Source: a virus
Lineage: Duplodnaviria; Caudoviricetes
Virus record (IMG/VR): IMGVR_UViG_3300021399_000125
Location: 34,175-98,174 of that record
DNA length: 64,000 bases
Strand: one strand, 5' to 3'
Within the stretch, counting starts at the first letter, position 1. Each line of letters begins with the position of its first letter. Both the position numbers and the translations under genes were made by a program. Below the pieces are notes generated by a model. That model was given only the letters and a program-made list of their open reading frames with translations, searched no databases and was not told the DNA's origin. Shown here one piece after another: positions 10,515 through 35,525 of the stretch.

Positions 10515-10992
10515 AGCCCAATGGCTGGAGCGTGACGCCGGGCGCGGCGACACTGTGGAGTGTACCGCCTGCGGCGCGGTGTTTGACGCTGTGGCGCTTA
10601 TGGCCTGCACCGTGCATCCCACTTCCCAATATCCGGTCTACTGTCCCGCCTGCGGCCATCGCATGCGCATTGGCAAAAAGATTCTCCCGGACTTCTGTAT
10701 TGAGCGCGACGGCATCACATACACCCTGACCGATGACGAACTCATTCAAGCCTATTTCACCCAGTCAGAGCGGTTTGACTATGAAGAGATCGAGTCCGAG
10801 CTTGACGAAATGGTCAAAGACAAAACGCCGAAGCAGATCCTGGAGCAGTACGGCCGCTCCGAGACCATGCTCCGCGCCATGATCCCGCAGATTGCAGAGG
10901 CTTATCGCGACCGCCGCGACAGTGACAGCGCCTATTTGGAGGCCATCTATCAGTGCCGCGTTGCCGCCGTGGAGGAGGTGCTTGGCGCATGA
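10507..10992 (+). CDS. Zn-ribbon hypothetical protein
   Basis: CTAC...YCPACG; GGAGG SD. Confidence 0.65.
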   Translation: MPEAQWLERDAGRGDTVECTACGAVFDAVALMACTVHPTSQYPVYCPACGHRMRIGKKILPDFCIERDGITYTLTDDELIQAYFTQSERFDYEEIESELDEMVKDKTPKQILEQYGRSETMLRAMIPQIAEAYRDRRDSDSAYLEAIYQCRVAAVEEVLGA

Positions 10993-11147
10993 TGCCGCAT
11001 TACGCCCGTGTGGCCATTGGGATTCTGTGTGCCCTGTTTGCCTGCGTTTTCGCGGCCATGGATACGGTCCATAAGGAGCCCGATCCCCTCTATACGCCTT
11101 ACGCGGTCATCGTTCTGGCCTTCTACTGTCTGGCCGTCAATTTGTAA
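10989..11147 (+). CDS. Small membrane protein
   Basis: Two hydrophobic segments, ATGA overlap. Confidence 0.5.
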   Translation: MMPHYARVAIGILCALFACVFAAMDTVHKEPDPLYTPYAVIVLAFYCLAVNL

Positions 11148-11164
11148 ATAAGGAGTGTGGTTTT

Positions 11165-11515
11165 TTGGAATGGAACGTTCTGATCGGAGATTTTAACTCC
11201 GGTGAAATCGAGTCCTATAACGTCTTTCGCCACTCCGGGTTTGTGCGTGACGTTGCTCAAACCCTCCGTAAGTTCTCCGCGTCCACGCCCTGGGATGCTG
11301 AAGGTCTTGAAAATGAACTCAACAGGATCCTCCGGTATTATTTTTGGAGCAAGTGCGAGTGGGAAATCGTGGTCTCCCACTGGCCGCCGTGCCCGAAGAA
11401 CAAAAAGCTTCGCAGCGAAAAGGTGGACGTCTATAGTCAGGTCATGCTGAACTGGGACGTGTTTTATCAGTATCTGCTTCAGCACAGAGACGCGCTTTTG
11501 GAGGCGGCAACATGA
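11165..11515 (+). CDS. Hypothetical phage protein (YYFWSKCEWE...KVDVYSQV)
   Basis: AGGAG SD, TTG start. Confidence 0.75.
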   Translation: MEWNVLIGDFNSGEIESYNVFRHSGFVRDVAQTLRKFSASTPWDAEGLENELNRILRYYFWSKCEWEIVVSHWPPCPKNKKLRSEKVDVYSQVMLNWDVFYQYLLQHRDALLEAAT

Positions 11516-13093: not shown

Positions 13094-13201
13094 TGTTGGA
13101 AAAAACGGCGCCCGGAAACCCGTTGTTTTCCAAGGGATTCCGGCACTTATGCACCTGGATTATATATGCAAGATAATCACTTGAAACCGGAGGAAACAAC
13201 C

Positions 13202-14359
13202 ATGATTTACTTTGATAACGCAGCCACCACCAAGCCCCTGCGTGAGGTGCTGGACGCCATGCGATACGCCTATGAGGAGTACGGCAATCCCGGCTCCAGG
13301 CATATCGCCGGCGCGTCGGCCAGGTCCGCCATGGATCACGCAAGATCAGCCATCGCATCCAGACTCCACGCCGGCGATGATCAGATTCTCTTCACCGCCG
13401 GCGCATCAGAATCCAATACCATGGTTTTCCGCGGTCTGGCAAAGCATCTGCTGAAGGCCGGGAAAACCAATCTCATCGTCTCTCAAATCGAGCATGACTC
13501 TGTCATCAACGCCGCAAGATCACTGGTCAAGGACTTCGGATTTTCCGTCACCTGGCTTTTGCCGGATGAAACCGGCAGGATCAGCGAGGAGCAGGTCTCC
13601 GCTGCCATCCTCCCGGAAACCGGGCTCTGCTCCGTGATGTACGTCAACAACGAACTTGGCACCGTCAACCCCGTCAGCAAGATCGGGGCGCTCTGTCATG
13701 AGCACGGTGTTCTGTTCCATACCGACGTCACCCAGGCACTCAGCGCCTACCCCATAGATGTCGGATATCTGAACTGCGATTTCCTGTCCGCATCCGCCCA
13801 TAAGATTCACGGACCCATGGGGGTCGGGCTTCTGTACGCCAAGGATACGTCCCTTCTGACACCGCAAATCTACGGCGGTGAGGATCAGGAGCTCGGCCTC
13901 CGCGGCGGCACCGAAAACGTCCCTGGCATTGCCGGGTTCGCCTCTGCGGTTTCCGCTCTGGATCTTTGGCGTGTCTCCTGGCAGCAGGATATCCGCGCCG
14001 TCAGAGAGCGGTTCCTCCAGGCGCTTGAATACTCCCTGAAATCCAAGGGGATTCCGGATTCCATGGTTTACACCGTTGACCCCGCGCACACCGTGCCAAA
14101 TATTCTCAGCCTGCGGTTTCCCGGCATCGACTCCGAAACCATGATGGCCATGCTCTCCCAGGTGGGGGTGTGCGTCTCCTCGGGTTCTGCCTGCCGTGCC
14201 CACTCCTCAGACCCCAGCCTGGTCCTGCTTTCCCTTGGCCTGTCCGCAGACGAAGCCCGCAGTACCCTTCGGGTTTCCTTCTCCCATTTTAACACCCAGG
14301 ACGAGGCCGCCGTGGCGGCCTTCCGGTTTGCGGACGTAGCCTCCATGCTTTTGCAGTAG
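13202..14359 (+). CDS. iscS: Cysteine desulfurase (IscS/NifS family)
   Basis: IYFDNAATT, YGNPGS.H, SAHKIHGP.GVG (PLP Lys), RGGTENVP, SSGSAC (catalytic Cys). Confidence 0.95.
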   Translation: MIYFDNAATTKPLREVLDAMRYAYEEYGNPGSRHIAGASARSAMDHARSAIASRLHAGDDQILFTAGASESNTMVFRGLAKHLLKAGKTNLIVSQIEHDSVINAARSLVKDFGFSVTWLLPDETGRISEEQVSAAILPETGLCSVMYVNNELGTVNPVSKIGALCHEHGVLFHTDVTQALSAYPIDVGYLNCDFLSASAHKIHGPMGVGLLYAKDTSLLTPQIYGGEDQELGLRGGTENVPGIAGFASAVSALDLWRVSWQQDIRAVRERFLQALEYSLKSKGIPDSMVYTVDPAHTVPNILSLRFPGIDSETMMAMLSQVGVCVSSGSACRAHSSDPSLVLLSLGLSADEARSTLRVSFSHFNTQDEAAVAAFRFADVASMLLQ

Positions 14360-16703: not shown

Positions 16704-17033
16704 ATGAAAAAATTGATGAATATTATGGAGTTTCGGAGATATACCAAAACCGCAAACCTCGGTCCGGTCATGTACCGCTCAGACAACCAGGAATGGTTTC
16801 GCGATACTGACCCGATCCGGTTCAAAGTCACATGTACCATTCGTGAAATCCGTCCTGAGCTTGGCTTAATTGTGCTGTCCTCCAGGGACGGCAGCGAAAT
16901 CTGCTTCAGCCGCGTCGTACATATCGGCATAGACACCGAGTGCTCTGTCCTCGGGACGGTCATCACCCTGATCTGTAAAAACGGAACCTGTCGCAATTCT
17001 CAAATTGCATACAAGCTGATTGCCTTGGCATAA
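16704..17033 (+). CDS. Hypothetical protein
   Basis: GGAGG upstream; not MazE/AbrB/RHH-like by eye. Confidence 0.6.
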   Translation: MKKLMNIMEFRRYTKTANLGPVMYRSDNQEWFRDTDPIRFKVTCTIREIRPELGLIVLSSRDGSEICFSRVVHIGIDTECSVLGTVITLICKNGTCRNSQIAYKLIALA

Positions 17034-17057: not shown

Positions 17058-17087
17058 TTGACATTTTCCCGGCGGATATGGTATAAT
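17058..17087 (+). promoter_or_regulatory. Consensus sigma-A promoter for the mazF-mrpR-like operon
   Basis: TTGACA-18 nt-TATAAT with extended TG. Confidence 0.85.
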
Positions 17088-17118
17088 CTCAGAGACCGGA
17101 AATCGAAAGGAGACCCAT

Positions 17119-17604
17119 ATCCACACCAAAAATTATCCCTGCACCCATCGTTCTCCGGTCATCGGAGATATTTATCTCGTCCAATTCGGGCGGGCAAAAC
17201 ATGGTAATGAGCAAAGCGGTATCCGCCCCGGCGTGGTATTCCAAAACAACGTGGGCAATCTGCACAGCCCAAACGTCATCATGCTCCCGCTCACAACCAA
17301 TCTGAAGCGCAGTGGCCAGCCCACCCACGTTCTGCTTCACCCGCATGACACAGGCCTTGCCAAAAGCAGCATGGTTTTGTGCGAAAACCCGGAGTGCGTC
17401 TCCAAAGAGCGCCTCGGCCGGTATCTCACGTCTCTGCCTCTGCACTATATGCGGCAGATTGCAGAGGCCAATCTCCTCGCCACGTCCGCCGCCTCCTTTC
17501 TGGATGTCGAGCGGTTTTGTGAAATCCGGGCGCAATCCATCGGTATGAATCTGTCTGCCGGGCATCCCCGTTTTGCGGCAGAGACGGAGGTAGCATATGT
17601 ATAA
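17119..17604 (+). CDS. mazF: MazF/PemK (NdoA/EndoA-like) endoribonuclease; probable ATC start
   Basis: GDIYLVQF...GNEQSGIRPGVVFQNNVGN..SPNVIMLPLTT...PTHV...SMVLCE...SKERL; the conserved N-terminus lies upstream of the called GTG (17233); AAAGGAG SD 6 nt before in-frame ATC. Confidence 0.88.
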   Translation: MHTKNYPCTHRSPVIGDIYLVQFGRAKHGNEQSGIRPGVVFQNNVGNLHSPNVIMLPLTTNLKRSGQPTHVLLHPHDTGLAKSSMVLCENPECVSKERLGRYLTSLPLHYMRQIAEANLLATSAASFLDVERFCEIRAQSIGMNLSAGHPRFAAETEVAYV

Positions 17605-18550
17605 CAAAATACAGAAAATTCCATTCGTCCGGCAGTTTGCAGACGGAAGCACCAAGCTGGAAAAGTCCTTCGTACGCTCGTTTCGTGTCTCTTCAAAATT
17701 TGAAGCTGCGCTCAACAAGGATATCTCCGCTTTTACCCAGCAGGAGCTGACCGATATGCTGGATAAGGTCAAGCAGAACGGAACAGGTGGCACCCAGGGG
17801 TTTTACACCTTTGTAGAAAACCTCCGTCTGTACGGCAGCTGGTGCCTTCGCGAAAAGCTGCCAGGGGCGGCTGTGCCCATCACAAAGTGTAATCTTTACA
17901 TCGGTGCGCCAGAAGAAACCCAGTTCGTCCGCAATGCCTACGAGCTCGAAAGATATCTCTCTGTCGTCTTTCCGTCCGGGCAAGGCTGCTCTAACAGCCA
18001 GTGTGATTATAACTCTGTCACCTGTGCGTATTTCTGGCTCGCCTTCATCGGCGTTCCCCAGGATCAGCTCGCAGACATCAAGACCTCAGACGTCGATTTT
18101 GAAACCTGGTACGTCCACGCAGGGGATATGTACTATCCATTCGGTCACGCTGCCCATGAGATCTTCCTGCGCCTGGTTCGTTCCGACACCCTCGTCATTT
18201 CCCGCAAAGACGGCAAATCCATTTCCGCTCCACGGGAACACAGCGACCAGCTTCTTCGCACCACAACGCCGTATCAACGTGGCACCATCGGCCCAAACAC
18301 CTCCAGAAAGATGCGTGCAGCCGTACAGGACGGCATTGTAAACAAGACCATCAGTTATAAATCGGTTTACAAGTCCGGCCTCTGCGCCAGGATTTATGAG
18401 CGTGAGAGCGTAGACGGCGGAGACGTCGTGCTGGACTATGTCAAAACGTTCATTTACAACAATGCCGACGGCACAGCCAGCATGGCGATCAGCAGAGCTG
18501 CGTATCTGCATGAGACCTACGGCGCCTGGAAGCTTGCCTTCCATATCTGA
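17597..18550 (+). CDS. MrpR (SPbeta YopR)-like lytic-cycle repressor, tyrosine-recombinase fold
   Basis: MYN..QK..F...F....FE..LNKDI..FT..EL..ML, LRLYGSW, WLAFIGV...L..IKTSDVD, SVYKSG pattern recalls MrpR; no intact R-H-R-H-Y tetrad seen. Confidence 0.7.
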   Translation: MYNKIQKIPFVRQFADGSTKLEKSFVRSFRVSSKFEAALNKDISAFTQQELTDMLDKVKQNGTGGTQGFYTFVENLRLYGSWCLREKLPGAAVPITKCNLYIGAPEETQFVRNAYELERYLSVVFPSGQGCSNSQCDYNSVTCAYFWLAFIGVPQDQLADIKTSDVDFETWYVHAGDMYYPFGHAAHEIFLRLVRSDTLVISRKDGKSISAPREHSDQLLRTTTPYQRGTIGPNTSRKMRAAVQDGIVNKTISYKSVYKSGLCARIYERESVDGGDVVLDYVKTFIYNNADGTASMAISRAAYLHETYGAWKLAFHI

Positions 18551-18554
18551 TCCG

Positions 18555-18581
18555 AAAACTCGCCTTCCGGGGCGGGTTTTT
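18555..18581 (+). terminator. Rho-independent terminator closing the mazF-mrpR-like operon
   Basis: AAAACTCGCC-TTCCGG-GGCGGGTTTTT. Confidence 0.75.
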
Positions 18582-18710
18582 CATACATAACTTTATACAA
18601 ACCCACAGAGCTTTCGAGGAGCGACCGTGACCCGGCCGCCGCTCGAAGGCTCTTTTCGTTTGCTTTCAAGCCTTCGTTCCGCAAAAAAATTGAATCAAAG
18701 GAGGAACCCA

Positions 18711-19403
18711 ATGGCAGAAGAACCACTGAACATCTACCAAAAGCTGGCCAAGGTCCGCAAACAGGTAGAGGTCATCCAGCGCAACAAAAAGGGGTATGGA
18801 TATTCTTATGTCTCGGAGGACGAGATCATGTCCAAAATCTCCGTTTTTCTGGATAAGTTAAACCTCTCTCTCATCCCGTCCATTGTGGGCGACAGCACAA
18901 AGGTAGAACCGTATCACTACACCAAGACAAAGTCCACCAAGGAAGGCAAAATCTACGAGGAACAGGTCAATGAGCTCCTGGTACACTCCGACATGGAGTA
19001 CACCTGGGTAAACAACGACAATCCGGAGGAGCAGATCAAGGTCGGCTGGGCAATGGTCGGCCAGCAGGCGGATGCGTCTCAGGCATTCGGCTCCGGGCTG
19101 AGCTATGCGGCCAGGTATTTCCTGCTCAAGTACTTCAACGTCGCCACACCCAATGACGACCCGGACGAATTCCGACGCAAGCAGAAGGAGGCCGAGGCCG
19201 CCGAGGAGAAGCAGCTCATCTCCGAGCTGATCTCCGCCATTGACGCATACACCAACCAGTACCTGGAGCGGAACCCGGGTGAGGCAAAGCAAATCAAACA
19301 ATTTTTCGCGCAGTATGTTGCCGGCGGCAACTATTTCAAGCTGAAGGACTCCAAGCAGGCGGCCGAGGTGCTGTCCAAGCTGGAAGAGACCTTCAAGAAC
19401 TAA
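18711..19403 (+). CDS. ERF-family ssDNA annealing protein
   Basis: LNIYQKL...GYGYSYVS.DEI...QAFGSGLSYAARYFLLKYFNVAT..DDPD. Confidence 0.88.
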   Translation: MAEEPLNIYQKLAKVRKQVEVIQRNKKGYGYSYVSEDEIMSKISVFLDKLNLSLIPSIVGDSTKVEPYHYTKTKSTKEGKIYEEQVNELLVHSDMEYTWVNNDNPEEQIKVGWAMVGQQADASQAFGSGLSYAARYFLLKYFNVATPNDDPDEFRRKQKEAEAAEEKQLISELISAIDAYTNQYLERNPGEAKQIKQFFAQYVAGGNYFKLKDSKQAAEVLSKLEETFKN

Positions 19404-19417
19404 AGGAGGCAATACAT

Positions 19418-19780
19418 ATGGGTTTTCGTAACGGCGCCTATGCAAAGGTCTGGTCGGTAGAACCGATGTCCGAGGCCTGCACCAAGCTGCGGCTGTCCAC
19501 CAGCCACAAGAACAGGGAAGGGGAGTACGAGCAGGACTTCTCCGGCTACGTTCTGGTCTGCGGCTCCGCCCCGGCGGCCATGGCCGCCCACCTGCAGGAG
19601 GGGTCCCGGGTCCGTCTCGGGGAGACGGAGGTCACCACCACCTACGACAAGGCAAGCAAGCGCCAATATACCAACTTCAAGGTTTTCTCGCTGGAGTCTG
19701 CAGACGGCGGCGCCAATCAGACGGAGCCCCGTAAAGAGGTGGACGCCGGCGAGCCGGACGACCGGAAACTTCCCTTCTAA
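19418..19780 (+). CDS. Single-stranded DNA-binding protein-like
   Basis: OB-like body, acidic tail ending DDRKLPF; lies between ERF and nuclease. Confidence 0.75.
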   Translation: MGFRNGAYAKVWSVEPMSEACTKLRLSTSHKNREGEYEQDFSGYVLVCGSAPAAMAAHLQEGSRVRLGETEVTTTYDKASKRQYTNFKVFSLESADGGANQTEPRKEVDAGEPDDRKLPF

Positions 19781-34064: not shown

Positions 34065-34313
34065 ATGCTTACAGGCAAAAACGACACCATGATAGAGCTT
34101 CGTGATTTCCCGGAGATGATGACCGTTCCGGATATCCAGCGTGCGCTGGGCATCGGCAGGACAAAGGTCTACCACATGATACATACCGGGCGTCTGCCGG
34201 TTCTGCACATCGGCAGGCTGATCCGGATCCCCAAGCCGTGGCTGCTCACATCCATCGCCTCGGCAGGGGAGCGGTACGTGGACTGCCCTGAAGCATCCGG
34301 AAGGGAGGCATAG
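34065..34313 (+). CDS. xis: Excisionase / HTH_17 recombination directionality factor
   Basis: MTVPDIQRALGIGRTKVYHMI..G.LP...IGR.IRIPK; abuts the integrase. Confidence 0.85.
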   Translation: MLTGKNDTMIELRDFPEMMTVPDIQRALGIGRTKVYHMIHTGRLPVLHIGRLIRIPKPWLLTSIASAGERYVDCPEASGREA

Positions 34314-35525
34314 ATGAAGCTCTCAGGCAGTTTAAGAGACAAAAGAGGGATCTGGCAAATGGTTGTCAGATACAAAGACAAAAACGGACAGGACGCACAA
34401 AAGTCCAGGTCCACAAAAATTCGTGTAGAGGGCAGCACGCCCAGACAGACGCGGCAATACCGCCGCAGCGCAGAAAAGCTTCTGGACGAGTGGATTGCTC
34501 AGCTGGAGTCCGATCCAGGCTTTCAGCTCGGTGACCGGTCGGAGCTGTATCTGACAGACTGCGTCGACCAGTGGATCGAGCGCAGAAAAAGCAGTATCCG
34601 TCTGGACACATACGAGGCCTATCGGTCTTATTTTGACGCGCACATTCAACCCTATTTCGGCCCCAAAAGGCTGAAGCTTGCAGATGTCGTACCAAGGGAC
34701 CTCCAGCGCTTTATTGACGCAGAAAATGCCGCCGGCAGCTCTGCCAACAGCATCAAGAAATACCTGGTACCCATCAACGGCGCCCTCAAGGAGGCAGCGC
34801 AGTACCGGGAGATTCCGTTCAACCCATGCGTCAATCTGACACTCCCGAAGGCCATGAGATTCAAGGGCAAGGCCTACTCTAAGGAGCAGGCCAACGAGCT
34901 GCTCCGGGCAGTCCGGCGCGATCCCATCGAGCCTGCGGTCTATCTGGGGCTGTTCCTGGGTCTACGCCGGTCTGAGGTAGCAGGCCTGCGCTGGGCAGAC
35001 GTAGATCTGGAGAAGGGGACTGTGGAGATCCGCAACACCGTGGTCCGCTTTTGTACGCTCTCAGAGGCAGAGAGAACAAAAAGCGAGGCCAGCCGCAGAA
35101 CGCTGACGCTGCCCGGGCAGTTAAAGGAGTATCTGATACAGCGGAAGCAGACCATGGAGGTCTTAAAGGCGGCGCTTGGCACTGCGTTTCATGACAGCGG
35201 CCATGTCTGCCAATGGCAGAACGGGGAGGCGTACAAGCCGGAGTATATCACAAGACGGTTCAAGCGGATCCTGGAGATCTACCATCTGCCGGAGATCCGG
35301 TTCCACGATCTGCGACACACCGCCGGCAGCCTGCTCATCAGCGGCGGCCAGAAGATCAACTACGTGCAGAAGTTTCTGGGGCACGAAAAGGCCAGCACAA
35401 CATTGGATATTTATACGCACACATACAAAGAGGAGATGCACCAGACGGCGGAGATCATTGATTCCATCCTCAGCACTCAGGGCACAAATGTCCCCGGAAT
35501 GTCCCCAAACCACTCGGATTTTTGA
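34314..35525 (+). CDS. int: Tyrosine integrase
   Basis: GLRRSEV.GLRW, FHDLRHT, LGH...STTLDIYTH. Confidence 0.96.
   Translation: MKLSGSLRDKRGIWQMVVRYKDKNGQDAQKSRSTKIRVEGSTPRQTRQYRRSAEKLLDEWIAQLESDPGFQLGDRSELYLTDCVDQWIERRKSSIRLDTYEAYRSYFDAHIQPYFGPKRLKLADVVPRDLQRFIDAENAAGSSANSIKKYLVPINGALKEAAQYREIPFNPCVNLTLPKAMRFKGKAYSKEQANELLRAVRRDPIEPAVYLGLFLGLRRSEVAGLRWADVDLEKGTVEIRNTVVRFCTLSEAERTKSEASRRTLTLPGQLKEYLIQRKQTMEVLKAALGTAFHDSGHVCQWQNGEAYKPEYITRRFKRILEIYHLPEIRFHDLRHTAGSLLISGGQKINYVQKFLGHEKASTTLDIYTHTYKEEMHQTAEIIDSILSTQGTNVPGMSPNHSDF

Follow-up and report, generated by a model that had tools for sequence, protein, structure and literature searches.

A two-gene operon that couples a MazF-family gene to the gene of a putative MrpR-like repressor in large phages of gut Clostridia

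Within the 64,000 nucleotides analysed here (the window; positions 34,175 to 98,174 of the IMG/VR virus record IMGVR_UViG_3300021399_000125, Caudoviricetes), a compact transcription unit at 17058-18589 holds two genes between a promoter and a terminator, the first of which encodes a predicted endoribonuclease of the MazF family, and the second a 317-amino acid (aa) protein that, judged by sequence profiles and a predicted fold, belongs with MrpR, YopR and SroF, the master repressors of the phages SPbeta and phi3T. Across a large Clostridia phage clade, the two genes are linked in a near-obligate manner. From our point of view, the unit is best explained as a lysogeny-control operon of a gut Clostridia phage clade that would follow the logic of SPbeta and phi3T with the RNase built in, a reading to which we give about an even chance. 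The features of the unit are the following:

17058-17087, plus strand: sigma-70 promoter TTGACA-18-TATAAT with a TG-extended -10 element, 12/12 match
17106-17112, plus strand: Shine-Dalgarno (SD) sequence AAAGGAG of the mazF-like gene, 6 nt before the ATC at 17119
17119-17604, plus strand: predicted MazF/PemK-family endoribonuclease gene (Pfam PF02452), 161 aa if the start is ATC, with a C-terminal extension
17597-18550, plus strand: gene of a 317-aa recombinase-fold protein of the MrpR/YopR/SroF family, putative master repressor (PF22822, profile, fold)
18554-18581, plus strand: intrinsic terminator hairpin, 12-bp stem, 3' arm ending in a U run, -15.7 kcal/mol, z = -2.83
18584-18589, plus strand: UACAUA, the consensus site of Gram-positive MazF, 34 nt after the stop codon and directly 3' of the terminator

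The promoter (-35 element TTGACA at 17058-17063, -10 element TATAAT at 17082-17087, spacer of 18 nt) is the sole 12/12 match in the 98,174-bp virus record, in which two sites reach at least 11/12. The other of the two (G000 22225, outside the window) reads TTGGCA-17-TATAAT with a TG and is followed by a GGAGG SD sequence and an ATG. In nearly all relatives a TTGAC(A/T)-17/18-TGnTATA(C/A)T promoter is found at the equivalent place, and lineages without mazF retain it ahead of the mrpR-like gene. Promoter and toxin gene are separated by 31 nt, which is too short for any gene, while the stop codon of mazF (17602-17604) and the next ATG (17597) result in an 8-nt overlap, the SD sequence of the 317-aa gene (GGAGG, 17584-17588) being located within the end of mazF. 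The terminator was found by folding and had not been picked up by a simple pattern scan; most relatives have a GC-rich hairpin at the same place. As such, the anatomy which the original prediction had read from the letters of the window, namely a consensus promoter, an 8-nt overlap into a 317-aa gene, a terminator behind it and no room for an antitoxin gene between promoter and toxin, is recovered in all parts.

The first gene had been read as NdoA/MazF-like with a catalytic-type Arg and Thr, and this assignment stands. Its product matches PF02452 (PemK_toxin) with E = 1.9e-22 and 79.9 bits (cut-off 23.1) over profile positions 3-104 of 109 and the PHROG 'MazF-like growth inhibitor' with 8.7e-24, and the solved MazF proteins of S. 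aureus and B. subtilis align to it at ~1e-15. Arg36 (GIRP) and Thr59 (PLTT) are in register with the GVRP and AAIT motifs of solved MazF and are, together with some twenty other residues, invariant in 48 diverse family members; we take them to be the equivalents of B. subtilis R25 and T48 in the numbering of the 4MDX work. The C-terminal extension, for which ~38 aa had been proposed, is real and amounts to ~32-44 aa depending on the reference MazF. All relatives share ~20 aa of this extension as a conserved, helix-like LLxxWxKAxxLN segment, whereas the tail of the window's protein is divergent and 13-14 residues longer than theirs; a comparison of the extension with PDB sequences gave chance matches only.

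The frame of the mazF-like gene is open from 17062 to 17604 and holds no ATG, GTG or TTG before 17233, which is residue 39 of the conserved domain. The conserved N-terminal strand is retained with one start only, the ATC at 17119; it stands at the start position of the relatives, which have GAAAGGA or GAAGGAG in the place equivalent to the AAAGGAG of the window. Among 92 unique family genes, the SD-proximal starts are TTG in 40, ATG in 35 and GTG in 14 cases, and the ATC of the window is the sole non-canonical start confirmed. The public gene call on the window's contig skipped mazF and called an antisense ORF (open reading frame) instead, the gene being missed by standard callers because it starts at ATC. 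A comparison with related strains is possible through low-depth contigs from two other studies, with counts taken among the substitutions listed. One related strain from another study certainly keeps the ATC, since its six differences are all assigned to other positions. Between close strains, 7/7 listed substitutions in the core codons 15-130 are synonymous, while amino acid changes are found in leader codons 2, 8 and 10, and this argues that the MazF core is translated and under purifying selection. MazF inactivity through lost catalytic residues, a finding that the original prediction would have counted against itself, is thus not seen, as Arg and Thr are kept and the listed core substitutions are synonymous. 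Low translation is also the one among the originally offered ways of holding the toxin in check that the sequence directly supports.

One could imagine that the mazF of the window is instead a silent relic, which lost its start by a change from ATG to ATC, so that the repressor alone is expressed from the promoter. Such a view would fit the want of a canonical start, the status of the ATC as the lone non-canonical start confirmed among 92 unique genes, the omission of the gene from the public call and the decay or loss of mazF in other lineages (L016, L071, L021-23, L079/92). However, the frame is intact over 161 codons with all invariant family residues present, the spacing from SD to ATC is ideal, and the ATC is kept in a strain of a different study, with the listed core substitutions all synonymous (7/7) as opposed to a non-synonymous leader; we hence regard a silent relic as quite improbable. 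As an observation apart, a terminator-like hairpin (TCTCCGG-TCA-CCGGAGA with a T-rich tail) is located at 17152-17177, within the 5' portion of mazF's coding sequence, and in a fold of 113 nt the mazF leader pairs with it (z = -1.9), which may point to attenuation of mazF expression or to chance.

The second gene was brought together with MrpR only by profiles, because single-sequence searches with the 317-aa protein gave no match, neither by tblastn against 50,697 phage records nor by phmmer against the PDB. A word-indexed homologue search returned 3 proteins only, while an exhaustive search with the profile of three homologues returned 2100 cluster representatives (50% identity), of which 755 scored below 1e-30 and all were of full length. 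Pfam MrpR_N_CB (PF22822) is matched with E = 2.8e-10 and 41.1 bits (cut-off 27) over profile positions 1-78 of 79, and a 112-member family profile finds phi3T SroF (1.5e-8), YopR (1.8e-7) and MrpR (2.8e-6) over positions 2-280 and thus over both domains, the next match being XerA at 5e-3. An AlphaFold (AF2) model built on the family alignment reached a pLDDT of 90.2, and the first six Foldseek ranks in the PDB were taken by SroF, YopR and MrpR entries (9rd5, 8bj6, 8a0a, 9rgl), with Cre and Xer behind. The recombinase fold and the MrpR/YopR likeness originally proposed are hence borne out by the CB domain, the profile matches and the six best folds. A hidden Markov model (HMM) alignment to YopR, read against Table 3 of PMC10516654, shows no conserved Arg at the Arg-I site of the family; at the HxxR site the family has x-R-V-W and the window K-S-V-Y, in the same HMM alignment to YopR and with no structural superposition. 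Tyr308 is conserved in the family, and MrpR likewise retains Tyr304. The alignment is suggestive of a loss of the active-recombinase Arg-I and HxxR positions in the family, and from the homology to the SPbeta/phi3T master repressor we infer a repressor function of the 317-aa protein.

MrpR of SPbeta is encoded by the last gene of the six-gene yopM-R (sro) operon and binds repeated SPBRE operators (PMC10516654). No repeated operator was found in the 98-kb record, neither among direct repeats nor with 14-mers of the promoter region at up to 2 mismatches, and an alignment of leader versus downstream sequence in the window's genome scored below the shuffle mean. In many related lineages (L017-L113), a box TCAAnn(n)TAATT, often TATCAACATAATTAAATAA, is located in the 5' untranslated region of mazF, ~40 nt upstream of its start, and in many it is found again 40-55 nt after the mrpR stop, just past the operon terminator. 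Additional copies occur in some loci and an opposite-strand copy in many; the window is without the box. It could represent a candidate operator of the MrpR-like protein, analogous to SPBRE.

The pairing of the two genes was surveyed in 80 IMG/VR loci found via the repressor and in a MazF-anchored set, the latter being the best 80 of 429 IMG/VR contigs that encode a MazF relative. A full-length MazF gene ends 10-60 nt upstream of the repressor gene in 74/80 repressor-anchored loci (the other six have mazF broken in two in one case and no mazF in five), and the repressor gene lies directly downstream in 79/80 MazF-anchored loci. Across ENA and Logan, mazF or a remnant was found directly upstream of the repressor gene in 8/8 contig sets sampled; it is intact in seven, one of these with an intervening ORF of ~107 aa, and the window's own contig is among the eight, with mazF left uncalled. 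Lineages that depart from the pattern carry a mazF remnant interrupted by stops (L016, 1450-1947), a mazF split in two (L071, 3534-3969) or a mazF deletion (L021-L023, L079, L092), with promoter and repressor gene still in place. Even where the repressors share just 25% identity, the two genes remain paired. A further candidate relative, L009 (MT835478), was set aside as it proved to be a host-type alr-mazF region. Consequently, both the expectation that mazF-mrpR synteny is conserved in related phages and the central proposal, that the phage encodes its own MazF within the operon of the repressor gene, hold, the latter by way of the shared promoter, the overlap, the terminator and the conserved linkage. 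In the literature we found no description of a phage-borne MazF in an MrpR/SroF operon.

Upstream of the promoter, one neighbouring gene bears on the question of an antitoxin:

16704-17033, plus strand: ORF109, conserved neighbour gene of ~105 aa, accessory to the module, with homologues upstream of mazF

One could argue that ORF109 is the cognate antitoxin and that the locus is an ordinary three-gene combination of toxin, antitoxin and regulator, as most related loci have a homologue just upstream of mazF, and a single locus has it between the mazF and mrpR genes. However, ORF109 is without a match to any Pfam or PHROG family and without similarity to MazE/AbrB, and the conserved promoter lies between it and mazF. 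Nor does it behave as a cognate antitoxin, because it is absent from at least 11/80 MazF-anchored loci and also from L015, L077 and L083, and because each of the five IMG/VR loci in which mazF was lost still has it. The original prediction had named a conventional antitoxin at 16704-17033 as a finding that would overturn it; with no family match and imperfect co-occurrence, we consider this very improbable, and the adjacent, always present antitoxin gene of a type II MazEF system is not found at the locus. In the ESM Atlas, ORF109 weakly resembles small beta-barrel or OB-like proteins (IF-1/eIF-1A, cold-shock proteins, CusF; TM ~0.5, poor model), and if this resemblance were real, an RNA-binding fold would stand beside an RNase.

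The U^ACAUA specificity of MazF is reported to be conserved for B. subtilis, Listeria and S. aureus (bioRxiv 10.64898/2026.08.06.743204), and the distribution of this site was analysed in 47 non-redundant loci (MazF below 85% identity), which are phylogenetically related. In the mazF and mrpR ORFs of these loci TACATA occurs 3 times versus 48.8 expected from the density in flanking phage DNA (P ~1e-17). On this expectation no other of the 3206 hexamers is as strongly depleted, the margin being nine orders of magnitude; the reverse complement of TACATA is not depleted. In 31/45 loci, UACAUA is found in the spacer that leads from the stop of mazF to the SD sequence of mrpR, at an offset of -4 to +15 from the stop, and it outnumbers AGGAGG in this spacer. 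At 29-43 nt after the mrpR stop, just 3' of the terminator, UACAUA is the most frequent hexamer (23/46 loci). In the window, 17088-18583 contains no UACAUA, and of these two recurrent sites only the post-terminator one is kept. The spacer site is missing because the two genes overlap and leave no spacer, and the absence of sites from this operon is uninformative alone since ~0.4 are expected in 1.5 kb. The window's own genome showed no bias of the UACAU and NACAN pentamers, and an unbiased analysis of 5/6-mer depletion with the operon as one block gave no clean signal, because ORFs free of the site and a spacer rich in it are combined in the operon.

Some further occurrences of the hexamer may be mentioned. 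At 19413-19418, a TACATA abuts the ATG (19418) of a 120-aa gene that follows erf, and a cut there would part the start codon from its SD sequence. Some relatives have a TACATA cluster ~95 nt upstream of mazF, which falls within the ORF105 coding sequence, maybe reflects codon conservation and was not used. The three mazF-less lineages (L021-23, L079/L092 and L016) are also without the post-terminator TACATA, which is suggestive but in numbers too small for a test; at that place L021-23 have TACACA, L079/L092 have TACCACA and L016 has nothing comparable.

The same evidence bears on two other explanations of the operon. The first is a toxin-antitoxin pair in reverse order, in which the MrpR-like protein would neutralise MazF and autoregulate the promoter, and loss of the prophage would kill or arrest the cell. 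In line with this, the toxin comes first and a DNA-binding protein follows, the two are translationally coupled (8-nt overlap; spacers of 12-30 nt elsewhere), no other antitoxin candidate is always present, and co-occurrence is near-obligate on the MazF side (79/80), the repressor surviving without an intact mazF in 6/80 loci and the toxin almost never being found without the repressor. What is known of MrpR and SroF, however, is that they bind operators as monomers and have a dedicated antirepressor; as antitoxins they are not known, and simple protein neutralisation leaves both the placement of UACAUA and its avoidance throughout the ORFs unexplained. We therefore consider a reverse-order pair unlikely.

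The second is that MazF represents a prophage defence or competition gene, or an RNase of early host takeover, that shares the transcript and stands outside the lysis-lysogeny decision. The PHROGs category of the MazF family is 'moron / host takeover', prophage defence morons are typically expressed from a lysogeny operon, the present unit is located among early genes, and MazF-like genes occur in unrelated gut-phage contexts (beside helicases in NatCom Ca. Heliusvirales, beside a true integrase in TR-TP1). Those 'MazF-like growth inhibitor' genes (PHROG 1936; NatCom Ca. Heliusvirales, TR-TP1, Perkons) share the PHROG with the window's gene and likewise have no obvious antitoxin; they differ in being 35-48% identical and in lying in helicase/methylase modules or beside a catalytically normal integrase. 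Among the copies of other phages inspected, none has an MrpR-like neighbour, the neighbour in TR-TP1, once a candidate, being a normal integrase. Yet the linkage in the present clade is far tighter and older than that of usual morons, given its persistence at 25% repressor identity, and ORFs that avoid the cut site, with sites at the internal and 3' boundaries, point to an action on the phage's own transcripts. A role of this kind appears rather unlikely to us, if worth keeping in mind.

Contigs related to the window reach 133 kb, and bins of metagenome-assembled genomes (MAGs) place the relatives in Ruminococcus, Oscillospiraceae, Flavonifractor and other Clostridia. In one relative the locus is found at 241 kb on a 256-kb MAG contig, of which 60-172 kb encode MutS, MutL, two aminoacyl-tRNA synthetases, RecQ, polyphosphate kinase (PPK) and AmtB. 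Barring misassembly, this indicates an integrated prophage, and the clade is probably temperate because this relative sits on a contig with bacterial core genes. The phage of the window, the genome of which is GC-rich, has no serine recombinase and, besides the apparently degenerate MrpR-like gene, three genes with a full Phage_integrase catalytic domain:

34314-35525 of the window: Phage_integrase gene
18947-19486 of G000, outside the window: Phage_integrase gene
10756-11295 of G000, outside the window: Phage_integrase gene

A lysogeny repressor is plausible in view of the prophage-like relative and these three integrase genes. Two neighbouring genes may be added. A NifS-like cysteine desulfurase (Aminotran_5) is encoded at 13166-14359 of the window, a few genes upstream of the operon, and since it is kept at that place in the distant relatives L001-L003 and L013, it belongs to the phage. 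In L020, L097, L102, L100, L031, L088, L089 and others, an apparent tRNA gene (GGGGTGTAGCCAAGCGGT...) follows ~80-100 nt after the mrpR stop, where the window has erf.

The background on which the original prediction drew, MrpR as keeper of SPbeta lysogeny and host MazEF as target of the arbitrium pathway, is correct (PMC10516654; PMC10769878). In phi3T, phi3T_93 binds MazE and frees host MazF, by which lysogeny is promoted (PMC10769878), and free MazF is reported to degrade most of the phage's mRNAs but to spare the ones from the sro operon (10.1101/2025.11.27.690993). MrpR (YopR) of SPbeta and SroF (phi3T_97) of phi3T (PDB 8A0A, 8BJ6, 9RD5, 9RGL) resemble the window's protein in length (~317-325 aa), in the PF22822 CB domain, in profile homology over CB and CAT, as its best structural match and in that their genes come last in a promoter-proximal operon of a large phage genome. 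They differ by a sequence identity of only ~15% in structural alignments, by their occurrence in Bacillus as opposed to Clostridia gut anaerobes, and by a repeated operator of the SPBRE type, which was not found in the window's genome. Neither a Sar/YopT-like antirepressor, for which no dedicated search was made, nor arbitrium genes (aimR-aimP-aimX), at which no search was aimed, turned up there.

With the sro operon (sroA-F, i.e. yopM-R or phi3T_92-97) the unit would share a functional tie between repressor operon and MazF, and the sparing of the phi3T sroF operon mRNA by MazF has its counterpart in the nearly UACAUA-free ORFs of the window's family. It comprises two genes in place of six, encodes MazF itself whereas sro encodes MazE-binding proteins (SroA/SroB), and in the window's relatives has a cut site also at its internal and 3' boundaries. 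The chromosomal MazEF systems of Bacillota (NdoAI/NdoA) share with it the PemK/MazF fold family, the catalytic Arg and Thr, ~38-40% core identity (S. aureus and B. subtilis MazF) and probably the UACAUA specificity, in contrast to which the phage operon has the toxin first, no MazE gene, weak or non-canonical starts and an extra conserved, helix-like C-terminal segment.

Taken as a lysogeny-control operon, the unit may work as follows. The strong host-type promoter would transcribe both mazF and the mrpR-like gene, of which the latter would yield a DNA-binding repressor of lytic genes, while the phage MazF would provide in cis the activity that SPbeta-like phages of Bacillus gain from the host's MazF, which they release through products of their sro operon. 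We infer that this MazF is active and would cut phage (perhaps also host or rival-phage) mRNAs at UACAUA, with the operon's own ORFs nearly site-free, and such cutting could bias the cell toward the repressed state or stabilise it. The dose of toxin would probably be limited in two ways, namely (i) by weak starts, which are TTG or GTG in 54/92 relatives and ATC in the window; and (ii), in most relatives, by the UACAUA that stands behind the stop of mazF and ahead of the SD sequence of mrpR, a site at which MazF would part its own cistron from an mrpR message that retains SD sequence and terminator hairpin. By way of the site behind the terminator, transcripts that read through into the recombination and replication genes downstream would be cut. 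In the lineage of the window, the genes are fused by the 8-nt overlap, and the spacer site is gone while the post-terminator site is kept.

A more specific version of this reading, which we put forward only tentatively, is that an antitoxin-free, self-limiting MazF serves as the post-transcriptional arm of the phage lysogeny switch by means of UACAUA sites that the phage itself has placed. The site between the cistrons would then exert negative feedback on the toxin and leave a separate repressor message, the site behind the terminator would insulate the downstream genes, and further sites would be located in lytic messages. The window would represent a natural variant, in which the feedback site was lost by gene fusion and the dose is throttled by the ATC.

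Several observations weigh against the lysogeny-control reading in general. The operon is collinear with, and located directly before, an Erf/exonuclease/DnaB module, which would fit an early lytic function too, and the window's genome has no repeated operator that would correspond to SPBRE. MazF is placed under the strongest promoter of the genome, which the cell would somehow have to tolerate. The ATC start may mean that this copy is barely translated. The site statistics depend on the expectation chosen, as an internal Markov expectation leaves the depletion in the ORFs at only 3 versus 10.4, and on loci that share a phylogeny. For the window itself the site evidence is thin, the absence from the operon being expected by chance and the spacer site missing, and the whole virus record is without UACAUA bias. 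Lastly, the UACAUA sites could serve the MazF of the host instead of that of the phage.

Overall, the present analysis extends the family of recombinase-fold repressors well beyond Bacillus (2100 cluster representatives) and provides a case of a toxin of a type II family that is kept without an antitoxin gene, apparently by control at the levels of translation and mRNA. It also gives an example of a gene that standard callers overlook owing to its ATC start. For SPbeta and phi3T, the way in which MazF promotes lysogeny is still regarded as unknown, and their system needs host MazEF and peptide signalling; the large, uncultured clade of gut Clostridia phages would offer a simpler natural version for testing, with two genes, one promoter and defined sites. 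As such, the findings suggest that this virus carries a tool of dormancy control of its own, which Bacillus phages borrow from their host.

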